Origin: a virus
Strand: one strand, 5' to 3'
DNA: 64,000 bases
Virus record (IMG/VR): IMGVR_UViG_3300045738_002140
Coordinates: 32,001-96,000 of that record
Made by a program: the position numbers and the translations under genes
Notes under the pieces: generated by a model
Databases searched by the model: none
Told to the model about the DNA's origin: nothing
What the model saw: only the letters and a program-made list of their open reading frames with translations
Shown: in pieces, positions 11,121 to 32,666 of the stretch
Numbering within the stretch: the stretch's first letter is position 1
Layout of the letters: every line of letters starts with the position of its first letter

Positions 11121-11540
11121 CTAAAGAATGGAAACACTAAATGTTTTTAGTATGTATTCTGCTGATAATTTATTAATGTCTTCCTCTTCTATCTCTAGTA
11201 TTTTAAAATTATTTAATTCAAGCCACTCTCTTTTTTGGCAGTCTCTTTTAATTGAGTTAAGGTAGTTTGACGCAGAGTTTTTGTGGAAAAATTTATTGAA
11301 TTCACTGTGTTGTCTTCCTTGTACCTCGACGGCAATTTTTTTAGTTGCGTTTAGTATATCGACCTTCATCAACGTCCCGTACACAGGGAATTCTTCATAT
11401 ACAATTTGGTTTTTCCAGTAGGTTTTTAGGAATTGCTTAACTTTGAATTGTATTTTAGATCTGGATTTTTTGTTCCAGTCTATTAAAAACCTTGAAACAT
11501 TCCTGCTTCGTAGTTTTCCTTTTATGTCATACAGCCTCAT
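11121..11540 (-). CDS. DUF559/Vsr-like endonuclease
   Basis: EEFPV...VDIL...IAVEVQGRQH...RDCQKREWLELNNFKILEI. Confidence 0.75.
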   Translation of the reverse strand: MRLYDIKGKLRSRNVSRFLIDWNKKSRSKIQFKVKQFLKTYWKNQIVYEEFPVYGTLMKVDILNATKKIAVEVQGRQHSEFNKFFHKNSASNYLNSIKRDCQKREWLELNNFKILEIEEEDINKLSAEYILKTFSVSIL

Positions 11541-11545
11541 TAAAT

Positions 11546-11974
11546 TGGTGGAAGCGGCGGGAGTCGAACCCGCGTCTTTAAAGCCATCGGCTCAAATGTA
11601 CTACAAGCTTAGTCGGTGTTAATGCTCGCTTGGCGTGTCACCGACAAACGGCCTACGCGAGGTTGTAAGGGATGTATAAATTTTATACTGGGCTCCCTTA
11701 CGTGCTCCAGTTTTTTGCTCGCTATCGACGCCCTAGCTCCTTAACGAGCATCCAGAGTAGGACGGGGTAGGTTATTCTACCAGCAAGAGGGCTTCATCCT
11801 CTACAAAACCGAACTTGGCGAGAATCTCGTCAGCTTCGGCTAGTGAAGGGGCCATCTCCATGTCAACATTAGTGTTGGCATTTATGTTTTTTTGATAGAT
11901 GTTTTTAAGAGGCCAACCATCATCCTCTGCTTGCAATTTGGCGTAAGGTTCTAAATCGAATCCAGTACGCTCCC
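11546..11974 (-). ncRNA. ssrA: tmRNA (429 nt); tag reading frame 11879-11772
   Basis: 5' GGGAGCG pairs with 3' CGCTTCC-ACCA (G3:U70 alanine identity); GGATTCGA near the 5' end; T-arm GCGGGTTCGACTCCCGC; ATAAAT-GCC resume context followed by a 35-codon frame. Confidence 0.95.
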
Positions 11975-11981
11975 GTATATT

Positions 11982-12009
11982 ATTATACACAATTATTTAT
12001 TTTCGTCAA
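11982..12009 (-). promoter_or_regulatory. tmRNA promoter
   Basis: TTGACG-16-TATAAT, 7 nt upstream of the mature 5' G; overlaps a GTGTAT variant of the recurrent motif. Confidence 0.75.
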
Positions 12010-12024
12010 GTTCTTTTATTTACG

Positions 12025-12144
12025 TCATTTCCAGTTGTCTTTGTTCGTTAAGTCACTAATTTTTTTATTGCACCAAAGCAAAACTATGATGCCAACAATT
12101 ATATTAGCCACAAAGATAGTTACTCCTAGCTCTGCGTCGTCCAT
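12025..12144 (-). CDS. Small single-pass membrane protein (39 aa)
   Basis: Manual translation MDDAELGVTIFVANIIVGIIVLLWCNKK...; fills the gap in the operon. Confidence 0.5.
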   Translation of the reverse strand: MDDAELGVTIFVANIIVGIIVLLWCNKKISDLTNKDNWK

Positions 12145-12146
12145 AA

Positions 12147-12473
12147 TTACTCTCCCCGGCTAAGAGTTTTGCCGTAGTCAATCAGGTAAAGGTCGTGCGT
12201 TGCCGCCGCAGTCTCGTCGATGATGTCTGCAAATTCAAACATCTCAATCGCTGGCATGTTGTTCTCGCCGTACTTACCGGCTGGCAAGTCCGAATACTTC
12301 GGCACAACGCCTTCGCGGAGCAACGCAATCTTCTTTGCGCTATCTCTGTTGTTCATGGCCTCCATGCCATCATTGGACAGGTCGAGTTCTTTGACTCTTG
12401 TCTGTGTTTCTGCGATATTTTTTTCAAGTCGCTTGATATGGTTGCTAAAAGCAATTTCTGTTTTGTTGTTCAT
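12147..12473 (-). CDS. Hypothetical protein
   Basis: ORF in operon orientation with an N-terminal coiled coil. Confidence 0.65.
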   Translation of the reverse strand: MNNKTEIAFSNHIKRLEKNIAETQTRVKELDLSNDGMEAMNNRDSAKKIALLREGVVPKYSDLPAGKYGENNMPAIEMFEFADIIDETAAATHDLYLIDYGKTLSRGE

Positions 12474-12483
12474 AAATTATTGG

Positions 12484-13251
12484 TTAAACCGTTCTTACCC
12501 CTCTCTTTGAGACCACTTTTGTCGCACACTCATTGGCGTAGTTTATCGCTGTTTCTGCATCACCCACCCTTGTCATGGATACTGCTAGTGCAGCTAGGAA
12601 TGTGTCTCCTGCGCCCGACAAATCTTGAGTGACTACTTTCTCTGGTGGCGGATATATTTTACCCATATATTTGCACCCTTTATGCCCTAGGGTTACAATT
12701 ATTTGGTCTGGCCTAGTATAAGTTGATGTCTCCGCTCTGTCTGGTATTAAGTGGTGCCTTAAGTGGGGATTAACTTCAAGCTCGTGCTCGTTTATTTTTA
12801 GAAACTTCAAATTAACAGGCAAATCACAGCGGAGTTTAACTTTGTTGCTATCTAAATAAACATTATCATGATATTGGCATATATCCCTAATGCCACACCT
12901 GCGAAGAAATCCCTTGCCGTAGTCTGAAACTAAAACTGCATCATATTCGCCCCAAGGTACATTTTTGTAACTAAACTCGTCTTCAGCGGCGTCATTTTCG
13001 TCTATTCGAAGTAACATTTGATTTGTTTTAATGTCCACATACCTAGTCTTAAGTATTTCATTAGACTGAGTGATCAGGTCGCATTCTACTCCAAGCGCTT
13101 TTACATTTGCTTGCACATTGGCCGCCATGCCGCCATTGGTTTTCTCTTTTACAGGGACAAATACCGGGACAGGAGCCTCTGGGCACATCCTGTCACATTT
13201 GCCGTAAATAAATATGTCTTTGCAGCTATCTCCTATTGCTAGAAATTTCAT
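12484..13251 (-). CDS. PfkB-family kinase, RfaE/HldE domain I-like
   Basis: RMCPEAPVPV, GMAANV, SDYGKG, DLSGAGDTF. Confidence 0.9.
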   Translation of the reverse strand: MKFLAIGDSCKDIFIYGKCDRMCPEAPVPVFVPVKEKTNGGMAANVQANVKALGVECDLITQSNEILKTRYVDIKTNQMLLRIDENDAAEDEFSYKNVPWGEYDAVLVSDYGKGFLRRCGIRDICQYHDNVYLDSNKVKLRCDLPVNLKFLKINEHELEVNPHLRHHLIPDRAETSTYTRPDQIIVTLGHKGCKYMGKIYPPPEKVVTQDLSGAGDTFLAALAVSMTRVGDAETAINYANECATKVVSKRGVRTV

Positions 13252-13658
13252 TTTAATTTATTTATACACACTTTTTTTCTGAGGGCTGAGGTTGACCAGT
13301 CATGGCTTCTCCTATGATAATATATATCAATGTTCAAAAAATCTCCAGTAAATTTTTTTCCTTCATAGTCGCTTCCTAGTATTCTGATGTCTGGCTCGAG
13401 TATTTTGAGCCATTCTATTAGTTCTTTTTCTGTGTTGTATACTACGACTTCGTCAACATAGCGTATCGCTTCAAGCTGAATCATTCTCTCGGGAAAAGAT
13501 TGTATGGGTTTGTTTTTTTCTGGCCTGTCTATGGTGGGGTCTGTCTGTAGCGCAACGATAAGGTGGTCACACTGAAGGCAGGCGTCTTTTAGCATCAGGC
13601 AATGACCCGCGTGCAGCATGTCGAAGCAGCTGGCAACTATACCAACCTTAGTGCTCAC
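13248..13658 (-). CDS. Cytidylyltransferase (TagD-like)
   Basis: FDMLHAGH (HxGH), KPIQSFPER, RSHDWSTSALR. Confidence 0.9.
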   Translation of the reverse strand: MSTKVGIVASCFDMLHAGHCLMLKDACLQCDHLIVALQTDPTIDRPEKNKPIQSFPERMIQLEAIRYVDEVVVYNTEKELIEWLKILEPDIRILGSDYEGKKFTGDFLNIDIYYHRRSHDWSTSALRKKVCINKLK

Positions 13659-13685
13659 TTTTTTCCTTGTATATTATTCATATTA

Positions 13686-13759
13686 TGGAGCGAGCGAAGG
13701 GGATCGAACCCTCATCAAGAGCTTGGAAGGCTCCCGCACTACCGTTGTGCTACACTCGC
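13686..13759 (-). tRNA. tRNA-Gly(UCC)
   Basis: Cloverleaf GCGAGTG...CGCTCGC-T-CCA; anticodon loop CTTCCAA; GTTCGA T-loop. Confidence 0.96.
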
Positions 13760-14190
13760 TATATTTTTTTAAGTCCTGTGTATTCTGAGGAGGAGCGAAT
13801 CTTTTGTCCTAGTCCATCAACCATTTCTATTTTTAATTCTTTGCATACTTTTGCTTCTGGTATTTCTTCTTCTGTTCTGTCTCCTCCATTAGCAAAAATA
13901 TCAGGCTTGCATAGCCTGAGCGATTCGCAAACTGTTTGGTCTTCGTCAACAGCAAGGAATGCTTCGTCTACGCACCTGAGGGCACGGACTATCTTAAGGC
14001 GATCCTCTTCTTTCATAAATGATTTACCTTTCTTTAGGGAAGCCTGTTTGTCTGTGTTAACTATGACTACGAGCTTAGTAAAGAAGGGCTTGTCTCCTAA
14101 GGCTGCTGCTTGTTCAAGATATTCTAGGTGTCCCACGTGGAGGGGGTCAAAGTAGCCGCTTACTGCGATGGTTATAAGTCTTGCTTCCAT
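13759..14190 (-). CDS. Cytidylyl/adenylyltransferase (HxGH family)
   Basis: SGYFDPLHVGH, FANGGDR, KIRSSS. Likely start is MEARL at 14190 rather than the track's 14292. Confidence 0.9.
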   Translation of the reverse strand: MEARLITIAVSGYFDPLHVGHLEYLEQAAALGDKPFFTKLVVIVNTDKQASLKKGKSFMKEEDRLKIVRALRCVDEAFLAVDEDQTVCESLRLCKPDIFANGGDRTEEEIPEAKVCKELKIEMVDGLGQKIRSSSEYTGLKKI

Positions 14191-14195
14191 AATGT

Positions 14196-15293
14196 TCACG
14201 CTACGTCTTTCACTATTGAATCTATAGTTGCGTTTGTTACTTGAGGCATGCAGATGAGGTGGGCGGTGTTCTTCTCTACTGCTAGTTTCCATTTTCTGCT
14301 AATTTTTTCATCTGGCCTAGGGAAAACTACTGTAATCGCGTGGTCATTTTTCCAAGCTTTCACCCCTGCTTCGTTAAACTTTGAAACAGCATACTCTGCG
14401 GTTCTTGTGCACCGCCTGACTATTCTTTTGAAGCCGTTGAAGCCGTGTTTTTTTATAGCATACCATAAGAGAATGGGGGTGAACCCATTTCTCGAGCCGC
14501 TGAGTGTACTGTCTAATGAGCCCACATACTCTACATCCCTAGAAACCCTGCCGACGTTACTTTTAAGTGCAAGAACTACGCCGCAGGGAATAGGCGAACC
14601 TATAAATTTGTGTCCACTTATGGATATGCTTTGAACCCCTGTTGTAAAATCAAATTTAGGAGAGCCCTCAATGAAGGGCAGCGTCATCCCTGCTAGGGCC
14701 GCATCAACATGTATATAATATTCCGGTATTGCTAATTGTTCTAGTACCTTTTTTATTTCTGTTATATCGTCGAACCCCTCTTTCATTGTCGTGCCTATGT
14801 TTGCAAAAATAACAGGAGGTGCAGAGCGCCAAGTGGAGAGCATGTTCCTGAAGTCGTCATAATCCATTTCTCCGTTACGTCTTGATTTAATCATGACGTT
14901 TTCCATGTTCAATACCCTTATGTTTTTGCTCACGCTATAGTGGGTGTCTTGGGAATAGTAGACTACCCCCTTGGGGTAAAGTTCCCTAGCTAAGTAAAGT
15001 CCATATAAATTGCCTTCCGTTCCACCATTGGTAACATATCCCCAGTAATTATCAGAAGGAGCGTTGTGAAGCTCTGCGAACCAATGCAGCACCTCTTGTT
15101 CGAATTCTCTGGAGTCTAGCCCATAGTAGCTTGAGGAAAATGGGTCTCCTACATTGTTAAGGGGGATAGACAAAAAATCAGATAGCTCAGAATAATCAAA
15201 AGAAGTATTTACAGGGTATCCTATAAACTTTTCTTTTTCTTCCTTCAAGCTTTCGTAAAACTTTTTAAGTTTTTTTATATCTGATTTGTTCAT
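14196..15293 (-). CDS. PLP-dependent group II decarboxylase (histidine/serine decarboxylase family)
   Basis: GYPVN, NNVGDPF, WGYVTNGGTEGN, HVDAAL, SGHKF (PLP lysine), GSRNG. Confidence 0.92.
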   Translation of the reverse strand: MNKSDIKKLKKFYESLKEEKEKFIGYPVNTSFDYSELSDFLSIPLNNVGDPFSSSYYGLDSREFEQEVLHWFAELHNAPSDNYWGYVTNGGTEGNLYGLYLARELYPKGVVYYSQDTHYSVSKNIRVLNMENVMIKSRRNGEMDYDDFRNMLSTWRSAPPVIFANIGTTMKEGFDDITEIKKVLEQLAIPEYYIHVDAALAGMTLPFIEGSPKFDFTTGVQSISISGHKFIGSPIPCGVVLALKSNVGRVSRDVEYVGSLDSTLSGSRNGFTPILLWYAIKKHGFNGFKRIVRRCTRTAEYAVSKFNEAGVKAWKNDHAITVVFPRPDEKISRKWKLAVEKNTAHLICMPQVTNATIDSIVKDVA

Positions 15294-15369
15294 GGCACTC
15301 TCGCTGGGACTCGAACCCAGAACCCTCTGTTTAGAAGACAGATGCTCTATCCAATTGAGCTACGAGAGC
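15293..15369 (-). tRNA. tRNA-Arg(UCU)
   Basis: Cloverleaf GCTCTCG...CGAGAGT-G-CCA; anticodon loop CTTCTAA. Confidence 0.96.
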
Positions 15370-15378
15370 ATAATCTTC

Positions 15379-16467
15379 TTAGAACTTTTTGAGGGTTTCT
15401 CTAAATTTATGAAATAAATATTTTCCTATCTCTTTGTTCTCCTCAAGGTATTTGCTAAAATTGTCTATGCCTTGGTGCTGTTTTCTGAACTCTAGTTCTG
15501 TTTTTTCTTTAACTTCTTCTATTATCTCGTCTGAGATGGTCACCCATGCCCCTTTGGCTGTGGCCATCCCCCACATAAGCATCATGTCTGCCACTTCTTT
15601 TTCTACCCAAATACTTTTTCCGTTTTTTCTTTCGTATCGAATGGGGTATCTTACGCCCACTCCTGTTTTTTCATTAGGGGTTTTCCTGAAAATAACTTTG
15701 CACCAATGACCAAGCTTGTCCCCTTTTCCGTTCGGCTGGGTAGAAATAATATCTTTAAGATAGCGTGGTTGAAACTCTAAAATCCAATCACTGTAATGCA
15801 ACATAGCGTTACCTCCGGATGCATTCGTCACTTGAGGGTCGGACTTTTCATAGGGATTAATTTTGATTGTGCTTCTTACTTGGGATATCATGTAGCAAAT
15901 GTGGCCTCTGGTTGATAAGCCGAGGGCCATTCTCCTAAGGAAGTCAGAGCTCAGTAGTGCGCCCCCGCCTACTTTTAGGGCCTCTTCTGATCCTTTTTCT
16001 AAGTCTCCACGAGGGATGAGGGAATCCATGGAATCTATGATAAACATATATCGAGTATCTGATGGGTTGTCTTTGACCATCTGGCGCATAAGGTTTATTA
16101 CTGTTTCATAAACATTAGATTTAAACACAAACCATTTCTCTGGGGAAGTGTCTATGCCCATTCTTTCTATAAGGTCTTGGGATAATCTTCCTTCCGCTTT
16201 CACGTAGATGACCATGCTGTTTTCCATCTTCTGAAAGTTCTTGGCGAAGGCGAGACCACAGGAGGTTTTCCCCCCCTCGGTGACTCCTGTGGCTCGCACA
16301 ACGCCGGGCTTTATCCCGCCCCCCATTTCGATATCTAGCAAAAGACTTCCGCTAGATACCGCATAGATTCTTTCTTCTTCAAAATTATAATGATCCCCTT
16401 TATGCTGTTCAAGGTACGCGTCGATTTGCTGGAGGGGCGTAATATTATCTGTTTTCTTTTTTGTCAT
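15379..16467 (-). CDS. recA: RecA/UvsX-like recombinase
   Basis: SSGSLLLDIEMGGG, GGKT Walker A, IIDS Walker B, ISQVR, SGGNAMLHY. Confidence 0.9.
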   Translation of the reverse strand: MTKKKTDNITPLQQIDAYLEQHKGDHYNFEEERIYAVSSGSLLLDIEMGGGIKPGVVRATGVTEGGKTSCGLAFAKNFQKMENSMVIYVKAEGRLSQDLIERMGIDTSPEKWFVFKSNVYETVINLMRQMVKDNPSDTRYMFIIDSMDSLIPRGDLEKGSEEALKVGGGALLSSDFLRRMALGLSTRGHICYMISQVRSTIKINPYEKSDPQVTNASGGNAMLHYSDWILEFQPRYLKDIISTQPNGKGDKLGHWCKVIFRKTPNEKTGVGVRYPIRYERKNGKSIWVEKEVADMMLMWGMATAKGAWVTISDEIIEEVKEKTELEFRKQHQGIDNFSKYLEENKEIGKYLFHKFRETLKKF

Positions 16468-30222: not shown

Positions 30223-32666
30223 TATTGACAACTCTCGCATGAAGGATCTTGTATATTGCAGGCCGCTGGTTCTCCGTCCTGTGTCGCTTGGGTGAATGAT
30301 TTTTCGATTTTGCTTGCGGCTTCTGTTCTTAAGTAGTATGTGCTCTTAAGTCCCCTGTTTCTGGCGTGAATATAAAGGTCGTTCAAGAGTTTAAGAGATG
30401 TCTTATTGTTAAACAGGTTTAAGCTTTGGCCCATATCTATCCATTTTTGTCTCGCTGCGGCACCGTCTATCAAAATAAATTGATCCTGATCAAACGCTAC
30501 CCTGTATTGTCTCTTAAGTCCCTCGGGTAGCTCTCCGTTTAGGTCTGCAACATTTCCGTCTACGGCCTTGATCATTTCTATAAGATTTTTTGACCAAATA
30601 TTTAGTTTCTTACATTCTTTCACGAACCACTCGTTTGTTATCGTCAGGTTTCCCGATTTGTTTTCGTAGACGAAAAGGACAGAAAAATCAGGCTCAACAG
30701 AAGGAGAGCAACCTTGAATGTAAGATATAGTAGCAGTAGGAGCGACAGCCATAGTGTTACTGTTACGCATACCGTAAATCCCAATATCATCCCGTAAACT
30801 TTTCCAATCCACCTCAGAAACATATTCTTTGCCCTTATGGATGATAGGCTGTTGGTCCAAATAATCCATAAGTTTTTTATATGTATCTATGGGAAGAGAG
30901 CCCTTGCTCCACTTGGAGCCTTCGTAGGTTTGGTATTTTCCTCTTTCCTTTGCTAGTCTGTTTGAATTTAAGATACAATGATATGAAATAAATTCATAAA
31001 GTTCATCTGAGAATCTAACCGCCTCCTTCGACGAGAAGTCTATTCCATATGAGTGGAAAACGTCTGCCCATCCCATCGTGCCTGCTCCGACGGGTCTGTG
31101 TTTGTTGTTGGCTTTTTCTGCTTCTTTTGTGGGGTAGAAGTTCAGGTCTATAACGTTATCTAGCATGCGCATTTGGGTAGCTATGCTTTTAGCTAAAAGC
31201 CTGAGGTCTAGCTTTCCGCTCTCTTTAAGGTGGCTCTTGAGGTTTATGGAGCTCAGGTTGCACACCGCTGTCTCTCCTATTTCGGTCTTTTCCCCGTGCT
31301 TATATTTAGAGGCCTTGGTGTGTAAAAAAATTTCTGTACAAAGATTTGAGCTATTTATTATTCCTTCGTGTGAGTTTGAGTACCTTATATTGGCGTTGTC
31401 CTTGAACGTCATCCACGGGTGCCCTGTTTCGTAAAGGGATCTTAACATCTTCTTCCACAAAGATTTAGCTTTTATTATCTTATGGTTTTTAATTTCCCCC
31501 TCTTCCGCTAGTCTGCAATAATCTTTATATTTTTCATCAAACTTATCGCCGTAGGTGCCGTGAAGATCCTTTACGTCATTTGGGCTAAAGAGGTACCAGT
31601 CTTCGTTTCTTTCTACTTTTTGCAAAAAAAGATTTGGAATCCAATTGGCCGTATTGATATCGTGACAGCGACGACGCTCTTCTCCAGTGTTCTTCTTTAA
31701 GTCTAAGAATTCCTCTATATCTAGGTGCCAAGTTTCAAGGTACGCACATCCTGCGCCGGGGCGTTTGCCGCCTTGGTTAACCGCGACTAGGAGATCGTTA
31801 AATATCTTAAGCCACGGAACAAGACCGCTTGAGGTCCCGTTTGTCCCCTTTATGTAGGACCCTGACGCTCTAAAATTAGAGACATCCAATCCTAATCCGC
31901 CCGCGAACTTGGATTTCCTAGCTTCTTGCCACGCCCCTTCGAAAATTCCATCTATTGAGTCGTCGAAAGTATTAAGGTAACAAGAAGAAAGCTGAGAGCG
32001 AGCGCCACCGCTATTAAAAAGTGTTGGGGTCGACGGGCAAAGCCTAAATGTAGAGATAGCCTCATAAAATTCAATTGCTTTCTTTTCTTTGTTTTTTTCA
32101 TTTAGCGCTAGCCCCATCGCTACCCTCATCCAAAAGGATTGGGGAGACTCTAGTCGCCTGCCGCCCATGCTGTGCAGGTAGCGATCATATAATATTTGTA
32201 AACCAAGGTATTTAAATTTAAAATCTCTTTCGGGGCAAAGGATTTCTGATAATTTTTTTAAGTCAAAATCAAGAAGCCTTTCGCTTAGAATTCCTTCTTT
32301 CACTAGAAGCTTTATGTTTCTTATGAATGATAGTCTGTATTGATGGTCAAAGGCGTCTTTGTCTACGCTGATTCCGAATACTTCTTTGTGAATATTCCCT
32401 AGGAGTAGCCTCGCTGCAACGTAGCTGTAGTTCGGTTCCTGTTCTATCTTCGTCCTTGCGGACATGATAAGGGCCCTATCTATCTCCTTGGTGGGGATCT
32501 TGTCGTAGAGCTGAACGTTCGCGTCGATTACAACTTCGCTAGCAGAAACCCCCTCTAGCCCTTCGCAGGCTCTCTGCGCGCAGATATTGGCTTTGTTTAT
32601 GTCGAGGGGCTGCAGTCTGTTGTTTCTTTTCTTTACGTTAAGTATGTTCTTTTTGTGGGGGTCCAT
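30222..32666 (-). CDS. nrdA: Ribonucleotide reductase class I alpha subunit with ATP cone
   Basis: VKKRN cone, TPTLFN, SSCY, SNLCTEI, VCNL, APTATIS, STYYLR, C-terminal CESC. Confidence 0.97.
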   Translation of the reverse strand: MDPHKKNILNVKKRNNRLQPLDINKANICAQRACEGLEGVSASEVVIDANVQLYDKIPTKEIDRALIMSARTKIEQEPNYSYVAARLLLGNIHKEVFGISVDKDAFDHQYRLSFIRNIKLLVKEGILSERLLDFDLKKLSEILCPERDFKFKYLGLQILYDRYLHSMGGRRLESPQSFWMRVAMGLALNEKNKEKKAIEFYEAISTFRLCPSTPTLFNSGGARSQLSSCYLNTFDDSIDGIFEGAWQEARKSKFAGGLGLDVSNFRASGSYIKGTNGTSSGLVPWLKIFNDLLVAVNQGGKRPGAGCAYLETWHLDIEEFLDLKKNTGEERRRCHDINTANWIPNLFLQKVERNEDWYLFSPNDVKDLHGTYGDKFDEKYKDYCRLAEEGEIKNHKIIKAKSLWKKMLRSLYETGHPWMTFKDNANIRYSNSHEGIINSSNLCTEIFLHTKASKYKHGEKTEIGETAVCNLSSINLKSHLKESGKLDLRLLAKSIATQMRMLDNVIDLNFYPTKEAEKANNKHRPVGAGTMGWADVFHSYGIDFSSKEAVRFSDELYEFISYHCILNSNRLAKERGKYQTYEGSKWSKGSLPIDTYKKLMDYLDQQPIIHKGKEYVSEVDWKSLRDDIGIYGMRNSNTMAVAPTATISYIQGCSPSVEPDFSVLFVYENKSGNLTITNEWFVKECKKLNIWSKNLIEMIKAVDGNVADLNGELPEGLKRQYRVAFDQDQFILIDGAAARQKWIDMGQSLNLFNNKTSLKLLNDLYIHARNRGLKSTYYLRTEAASKIEKSFTQATQDGEPAACNIQDPSCESCQ

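Follow-up and report, generated by a model that had tools for sequence, protein, structure and literature searches.

Protein genes that lie directly beside transfer RNA (tRNA) genes are known from two kinds of system, the tRNA punctuation of animal mitochondria and the mixed messenger RNA (mRNA)-tRNA operons of bacteria. In animal mitochondria, as Ojala, Montoya and Attardi reportedly described in 1981, genes abut tRNAs without a spacer, so that tRNA excision leaves an upstream message ending in UA and a leaderless downstream message; tRNAs border almost all of the mRNAs on long polycistronic transcripts, RNase P and RNase Z excise them, and the stop codons are completed by polyadenylation. 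Among the mixed operons of Escherichia coli are tRNA-tufB and secG-leuU. In the latter, in which the two genes are separated by a spacer of 14 nucleotides (nt), RNase P cuts the tRNA from the mRNA and the secG message is removed by exonucleolytic decay with a half-life of less than 30 s, most of its 3' ends lying inside the coding sequence (Mohanty and Kushner 2007, PMC2241853). The stretch of DNA considered here, referred to as the window, comprises 64,000 nt at positions 32,001 to 96,000 of the IMG/VR virus record IMGVR_UViG_3300045738_002140. Within it, two tRNA genes each share a single base with a protein gene: the terminal A of a tRNA-Arg is the first base of the start codon of a decarboxylase, and the first G of a tRNA-Gly is the last base of the stop codon of a cytidylyltransferase-like protein, CT1. 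The arrangement is of a kind known from the two systems above and is here an extreme phage case. Its one-base overlaps are probably by-products of flush insertion and deletion during the strong compaction of this phage genome.

The likeness to secG-leuU lies in the transcription unit. In both, a tRNA stands beside a protein gene with no promoter or terminator between the coding sequence and the tRNA (spacers of 0 and 9 nt in the phage). Since the 9 nt before tRNA-Arg and the 0 nt before tRNA-Gly provide no room for an intergenic promoter, co-transcription and a competition between processing and translation are likely. A scan for promoters and terminators found none at the tRNA junctions, though promoters may lie inside the upstream coding sequence. 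A promoter-like site in CT1 (14150..14121, 10/12) and a terminator-like hairpin (13919..13901) were both left unused, as neither class is more frequent than chance would give (promoter-like sites, 23 where 14.7±3.9 are expected; hairpins, 8 where 8.1 are expected after shuffling). In contrast to secG-leuU, with its spacer and intact signals, the phage spacer is -1 nt and the cut takes part of a stop or start codon; moreover, the separation of tRNA and mRNA by RNase P and the rapid degradation of the upstream mRNA are established for secG-leuU, whereas in the phage the processing is inferred. The likeness to mitochondria lies in direct abutment (-1 nt at 15293 and at 13759, and 5 nt after a transfer-messenger RNA (tmRNA) further downstream). 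It does not extend to genome-wide delimitation. The contig analysed is the 114-kb IMG/VR record, which has 42% G+C and is estimated to be about 66% complete, and it carries 3 tRNAs and 1 tmRNA among roughly 140 open reading frames (ORFs). Only two or three such junctions occur in these 114 kb, they lack conservation, and the precursor still contains a whole stop codon. A literature search for tRNA punctuation in bacteriophages returned mitochondrial papers only.

RNA genes were identified with ARAGORN and Rfam, and proteins from the ORF list with Pfam and PHROG family searches. CT1 (13759..14190, minus strand) is a 143-residue cytidylyltransferase-like protein of the heptose-1-phosphate adenylyltransferase type (Pfam CTP_transf_like, 9e-17; phrog_7878). 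It is followed on the same strand by tRNA-Gly(TCC) with an encoded CCA end (13686..13759; ARAGORN; Rfam, 65.8 bits). The minus strand reads ...AAAATATAGCGAGTG at this junction (also quoted as ...CTTAAAAAAATATAGCGAGTG...), and G1 of the tRNA (13759) is the G of the CT1 stop codon TAG (13761..13759). An earlier note on this DNA had claimed this shared base as well as the one between the tRNA-Arg CCA and the decarboxylase ATG, and the sequence, ARAGORN and Rfam agree with it on both. Close homologues of CT1 end in ...YTGLK*, and one in ...YTGLKQI*, so the ending in the window, ...YTGLKKI followed by TAG, is credible. Recoding of the TAG was considered and rejected, as read-through would meet a further TAG in the tRNA only two codons on, and 25 of the 140 ORFs terminate with TAG.

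The origin of this stop is best seen by comparison with the locus L004, the nearest relative. There, tRNA-Gly is absent, as is CT2, a second cytidylyltransferase-like protein, and the CT1 stop overlaps the start of a sugar kinase gene (GGACTTAAATGAAATTT). Relative to L004, a block made up of AAAATATA, tRNA-Gly, 27 nt and CT2 stands in the window between GGACTTAAA and ATGAAATTT, and TTAAA is present at either side. The 27 nt run from tRNA-Gly to the GTG start of CT2 and include an AAGGA motif. CT2 itself (13248..13658, minus strand; 136 residues; Pfam, 1e-13; phrog_7878, 6e-36) is 31% identical to its paralogue CT1 and lies within the segment that L004 lacks. In this comparison, the CT1 stop at G1 is the first in-frame stop beside an indel junction, whichever of the two states is ancestral. 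When the conservation test proposed in the earlier note is applied to this junction, the junction fails it: L004 is without the tRNA; L101, whose CT1 is 64% identical and whose gene order is the same, has a full TAA, then TTC, then a different tRNA-Gly(TCC) lacking an encoded CCA; and in the remaining 39 of 41 CT1 homologue loci the gene is not directly followed by a tRNA, leaving L101 as the only one of the 41 with a tRNA in that place. A cleavage site that removes the stop is therefore not conserved among CT1 homologues.

A copy of the same tRNA-Gly(TCC), identical at 74 of 74 positions, is present in L206, an unrelated 158-kb phage contig with unrelated flanks, where the similarity to the window ends exactly at G1 and A76. 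In that contig (L206:520-1468, on the minus strand of the locus) a complete ORF for a 291-residue HldD-like epimerase lacks its own stop codon and terminates at a TAG inside the D-loop of the tRNA, giving an overlap of 21 nt; a tRNA-Arg(TCT) lies 6 nt further on. A second tRNA-Gly pattern searched in IMG/VR again returned L206 as the sole match, and an exact match to the tRNA-Gly was absent from the 185,579 species genomes searched.

Turning to the other junction, tRNA-Arg(TCT) with an encoded CCA end (15293..15369, minus strand; ARAGORN; Rfam, 69.6 bits) precedes a gene for a 365-residue group II pyridoxal phosphate-dependent decarboxylase (14196..15293, minus strand; Pfam Pyridoxal_deC, 4e-25). 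The minus strand reads ...GAGAGTGCCATGAAC..., which is the discriminator G, then C, C and A, then TG. The decarboxylase ATG takes its A from A76 of the tRNA (15293), an overlap of 1 nt. The predicted start is supported by homology, its position being common to more than 20 homologues in other contexts that begin with (M/L/V)NK(S/K)D and use ATG, TTG or GTG; the starts of these homologues often overlap the stop of the preceding gene. The decarboxylase is found at 4 viral loci (on three contigs) and 45 metagenome loci, and to judge from this distribution it is a mobile accessory gene present in many other contexts. A tRNA lies upstream of it only in the lineage of L004, L005 and L207, with the same CCATG junction. 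The overlap is kept, then, in the sole lineage that has the same gene order (L004 and L207), and on this side the conservation sought in the earlier note is found. The tRNA-Arg is identical to that of L004 at 75 of 77 nt. Between the window and L004 the nonsynonymous divergence is 0.09 for the decarboxylase and 0.21 for CT1, and no ratio to synonymous divergence is given because synonymous sites are saturated. In other relatives, an ATG follows the CCA of tRNA-Arg after 6, 6, 6, 7, 14 or 38 nt, and the gene that it opens is usually a CT1 with a longer N-terminus. This extension of about 20 residues reads ...YL(D/N)DP(N/K)F(H/R)RI(I/L)NSLMNI... in the relatives (L004:6100-6567 was compared). 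The CT1 of the window is shortened and does without it, the stop of the decarboxylase lying 5 nt upstream.

The overlaps are in keeping with the general compactness of the genome. Using a simple longest-ORF caller, 56 of the 115 same-strand junctions between coding sequences (CDSs) are overlaps, 77 of 115 have gaps that do not exceed 10 nt, and the median is 0. RNA genes are packed in a similar way: in a survey of 50 distinct tRNA and tmRNA genes from related loci, the upstream stop lies 1-10 nt before the RNA gene in 12 of 39 cases, and the next start lies 5-14 nt after the RNA 3' end in 15 of 42. The 1-nt overlaps are the tail of this normal gap distribution, at the compaction limit, and no outliers. 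One base is the limit because G1 and A76 are fixed: a deletion that brings a neighbouring gene closer can go no further than TA+G or A+TG if neither partner is to be harmed.

The setting of the overlaps is a variable slot in an otherwise constant backbone. For the RecA-like gene that precedes tRNA-Arg, 353 relatives were found in IMG/VR, and the best 80 loci were surveyed. The backbone consists of GMD, orf124, RecA, the variable insert, a gene for a 139-residue protein, sometimes orf97, and DnaB. Between RecA and the 139-residue gene, the slot is empty in 28 of the 80 loci and contains only a tmRNA in 18 of them; in single loci it holds a tRNA-Leu, or a tRNA-Gly(GCC) together with a tRNA-Arg and CT1. 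Contigs from the same seawater samples join RecA to the tmRNA, or tRNA-Arg to the tmRNA, skipping 3.3-3.4 kb. The empty, tmRNA-only and otherwise varied contents, together with the contigs that skip them, identify the slot as an insertion hot spot. The slot (11541-15378 in the window; L005-L084 in the survey) also contains sugar-nucleotide genes in some loci, and several loci carry unidentified inserts that measure 1-3 kb. As for the manner of insertion, the comparison with L206 suggests that a tRNA gene travels as a unit whose borders are the ends of the mature tRNA, and in this phage community tRNA genes evidently land flush on coding sequence, the neighbour then taking the next available stop. 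Compaction, or insertion of a cassette at tRNA ends, was the alternative that the earlier note had set beside its own proposal, and both the slot survey and the indel comparison support it.

Variable tRNA regions are familiar from large phages, an example being the tRNA cluster of T4, a plasticity zone that includes small ORFs and SegB. The slot resembles such T4-type regions in that tRNAs are placed among accessory ORFs in a variable array exchanged by co-infecting phages. It differs in that no mobile homing endonuclease is evident. The 139-residue gene (11121..11540, minus strand) has no Pfam match and only weak PHROG matches to HNH or homing endonucleases (phrog_559, 2e-6; phrog_9084, 3e-5). 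It was considered as a mobile homing endonuclease driving turnover of the slot, and this was ruled out because it is a fixed backbone gene, which almost all of the 80 relatives carry between RecA and DnaB and which forms the downstream border of the slot.

Taken together as a mechanism, flush insertion and compaction would operate as follows. An indel flanked by TTAAA would have split CT1 from the kinase start, formerly the supplier of its stop, leaving TA plus G1 of tRNA-Gly as the first in-frame stop. The decarboxylase would have been placed directly behind the CCA of tRNA-Arg, with A76 used as the A of its ATG. Lacking promoters of their own, both tRNAs would be carried on the message that runs from RecA to the kinase and would be excised by host RNase P and 3'-end enzymes. 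A given precursor molecule could then serve as a source of mature tRNA or of undamaged flanking mRNA, but not of both: cutting would release the tRNA at the expense of the CT1 stop and the decarboxylase start, and translation ahead of cutting would give protein. The cleaved upstream mRNA would presumably be degraded, by analogy with secG-leuU. Some ribosomes may nonetheless reach the UA end, and their rescue by the host or phage tmRNA would be incidental quality control. Given the decay seen in secG-leuU, an intact stop beside a tRNA protects little, and a one-base overlap should therefore change little. The mechanical claims of the earlier note are logically sound, in that a cut 5' of G1 leaves a UA end and the AUG loses its A when tRNA-Arg is released together with its CCA. 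The wider idea of the note, a coupling of tRNA processing with translation, holds to the extent that mutual interference is probable; a programmed nonstop or tagging device is not supported.

The tmRNA that enters into that idea lies 1.7 kb downstream (11546..11974, minus strand). It was missed by ARAGORN and detected at full length by Rfam (RF00023, 134 bits). Directly upstream is a sigma-70-type promoter (TTGACG, 16 nt, TATAAT; 11982..12009, minus strand; 11/12 match), a near-consensus sequence that is the best match in the region and is placed to start transcription at the tmRNA 5' end. Relatives have an A/T-rich, TATAAT-like sequence directly upstream of their tmRNA 5' ends. With such a promoter, the tmRNA forms, at least in part, a transcription unit of its own. 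Many relatives without any overlap of a tRNA and a stop also carry a tmRNA in this slot, and thus it is not tied to the junction of CT1 and tRNA-Gly. The CCA end (11546) is followed by ATTTA and then by the ATG of the 139-residue gene (11540), a gap of 5 nt, as the earlier note had stated. The tag frame (11879..11772) has 35 codons and ends in ...LLLVE. Tags predicted for relatives (L002, L019, L024, L027, L028, L042-L056 and L072-L083 were compared) have 20-31 residues and end in Ala-Ala or Ala-Val. They share a conserved core, EADEILA.FG, which is extended to MAPSLAEADEILA.FG in most full-length tags. At a predicted 20-35 residues, the tags of this phage group are unusually long, and the ...LLLVE ending of the window arose by point substitutions with no frameshift.

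In the model that follows from the earlier note, the RNase P cut at G1 would serve to produce a programmed nonstop CT1 mRNA, and the tmRNA would add a stable C-terminal extension of 36 residues to its product. Several features would suit such a device. The cut leaves ...AUAUA with the stop lost, a complete tmRNA with a 35-codon tag is encoded nearby, the Val-Glu end of the tag is unusual beside the Ala-Ala or Ala-Val of relatives, and the junction peptide put forward (GLKKI-A-ANTNVD) is the one that the rules of trans-translation would predict. The closest precedent is ArfA of E. coli, in which cleavage by RNase III creates a nonstop mRNA that is a tmRNA substrate; there too, an endonuclease cuts in or at the end of an ORF and the product meets tmRNA. 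The hairpin of ArfA, however, is conserved and regulatory, whereas the phage junction is lineage-specific and its stop position is accounted for by the indel. The tRNA-Gly is missing in L004, a full TAA and 3 nt stand before the tRNA in L101, the other 39 of 41 loci have ordinary stops with no adjoining tRNA, and many relatives possess the tmRNA without such a junction. Any mRNA cut beside a tRNA would, in addition, be nibbled to a nonstop end whether its stop was intact or not (PMC2241853). The built-in substrate for a programmed extension is accordingly left unsupported, and this reading is very unlikely. It is also very unlikely that the overlaps were produced by assembly, through mis-joining of the 1.6-kb decarboxylase-transferase segment at tRNAs shared with co-occurring phages. 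Logan unitigs do break inside both tRNAs, where depth is 5-20 times higher, which indicates that other genomes share these tRNAs. Nevertheless, both overlaps are contained without differences in one unitig (13730-15342) of a separate study, X2, although it reaches only 30 nt past 13759, just under the 31-nt bridging rule. Its depth of 33.8 agrees with the 33.6-37.6 of its neighbours, depths also agree in X3, and L004 and L207 independently show the series RecA, tRNA-Arg, decarboxylase, CT1 and kinase. The junctions are confirmed to be no assembly artefacts.

A more serious competitor to flush insertion and compaction is a form of tRNA punctuation proper to the phage, in which excision of a tRNA or tmRNA deliberately frees a leaderless or near-leaderless downstream mRNA. 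The decarboxylase message would then begin with CCAUG or AUG, the 3' end of the tRNA being repaired by the host CCA-adding enzyme; upstream, excision would set the mRNA 3' end, and UA might become UAA through host polyadenylation. Two sets of observations speak for such a process and weigh against compaction as the whole explanation. CCATG is identical in the window and L004 despite saturated synonymous sites, and it has stayed while the junctions near it differ by indels, so its retention could reflect selection instead of inertia. The family also commonly has starts that lack a Shine-Dalgarno motif and lie 5-14 nt behind a tRNA or tmRNA, which hints that such junctions are compatible with expression or even used for it. 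Gaps of -1 to 14 nt from RNA gene to ATG without this motif are found at 17 distinct junctions of the group, among them that of the backbone 139-residue gene, which begins 5-11 nt after the tmRNA. Across the whole contig, no more than about 26% of predicted starts have a Shine-Dalgarno-like motif before them, compared with 14% at random positions, and from these figures the host probably initiates translation largely without Shine-Dalgarno pairing. The close starts would fit the release of near-leaderless mRNA and Shine-Dalgarno-independent initiation on unprocessed precursors equally well. Other evidence runs against punctuation. With 3 tRNAs and 1 tmRNA in 114 kb, two of these RNA genes having a promoter-like sequence of their own, most genes are unpunctuated. 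Nor is ATG, as a test of leaderless translation, enriched after RNA genes (16/17, against 574/652 at tight CDS-CDS junctions, no difference). No bacterial enzyme is known to cut between C75 and A76, and no homologue of a CCA-adding enzyme or poly(A) polymerase (PF01743) was detected in the contig, itself about 66% complete. The A/U-rich spacers do resemble known RNase E sites after CCA, but E. coli mRNA freed upstream of a tRNA is destroyed and not stabilised (PMC2241853). On balance, punctuation of this kind is unlikely. More doubtful still is its extension to the whole group, in which host maturation enzymes would free near-leaderless downstream genes and set upstream 3' ends, with UA completed by addition of A or passed to the long-tag tmRNA of the phage. 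This version would take in the replication-module gene located 5-11 nt after the tmRNA as well as the decarboxylase that shares A76.

The remaining features of the region complete the picture of its gene order. Every gene between 9 and 18 kb of the window is on the minus strand, in the order RecA/UvsX-like recombinase, tRNA-Arg, decarboxylase, CT1, tRNA-Gly, CT2 and PfkB kinase, followed by a 108-residue ORF, a 39-codon ORF, the promoter, the tmRNA and the 139-residue ORF, with the DnaB helicase further on. The RecA/UvsX-like recombinase (15379..16467, minus strand; Pfam RecA, 3e-17; PHROG UvsX-like, 7e-31) is a conserved backbone gene that forms the upstream border of the slot, its stop lying 9 nt before tRNA-Arg. 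The PfkB-family sugar kinase (12484..13251, minus strand; Pfam PfkB, 8e-18; phrog_8133, 5e-72) has an ATG that overlaps the CT2 stop in ATGA. The 108-residue ORF inside the slot (12147..12473, minus strand) is from the ORF list and had no family match in the Pfam and PHROG searches. Between it and the tmRNA promoter is an ORF of 39 codons with a hydrophobic core (12025-12144, minus strand), unannotated by any family, whose ATG is 2 nt downstream of the TAA stop (12149..12147) of the 108-residue ORF. A search of phage GenBank in distant mode returned only tRNA matches and no cultured relative, and among public sequencing runs none of RNA was listed as containing the sequence.

Both tRNAs have a canonical cloverleaf and anticodons that fit codons favoured by the phage. 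AGA accounts for 46% of arginine codons, GGA for 32% of glycine codons and ATA for 53% of isoleucine codons, each being the most used for its amino acid. To judge from fold and codon use, the tRNAs are real and useful to the phage. The third tRNA of the contig, an Ile(TAT), lies outside the window (G000:C1:99924-100001, plus strand), with a TATAAT-like sequence about 26 nt upstream and an ATG 13 nt after it; it and the tmRNA are the two RNA genes with their own promoter-like sequence. The phage promoters in general look sigma-70-like.

If maturation, translation and trans-translation were coupled here by design, this would be the first mitochondria-like punctuation in a phage, and it would also give phage tmRNAs a function. 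With flush insertion and compaction, the probable reading, the locus provides a base-level view of the way in which a recombination hot spot of an abundant marine phage group takes up tRNAs and accessory genes, and it shows that genome compaction can reach the fixed ends of tRNAs. Gene callers should accordingly expect that a genuine start or stop codon may have a base in common with a tRNA gene. The recurring starts that follow tRNA and tmRNA genes directly, without Shine-Dalgarno motifs, pose a question about this group that is cheap to ask and can be tested.

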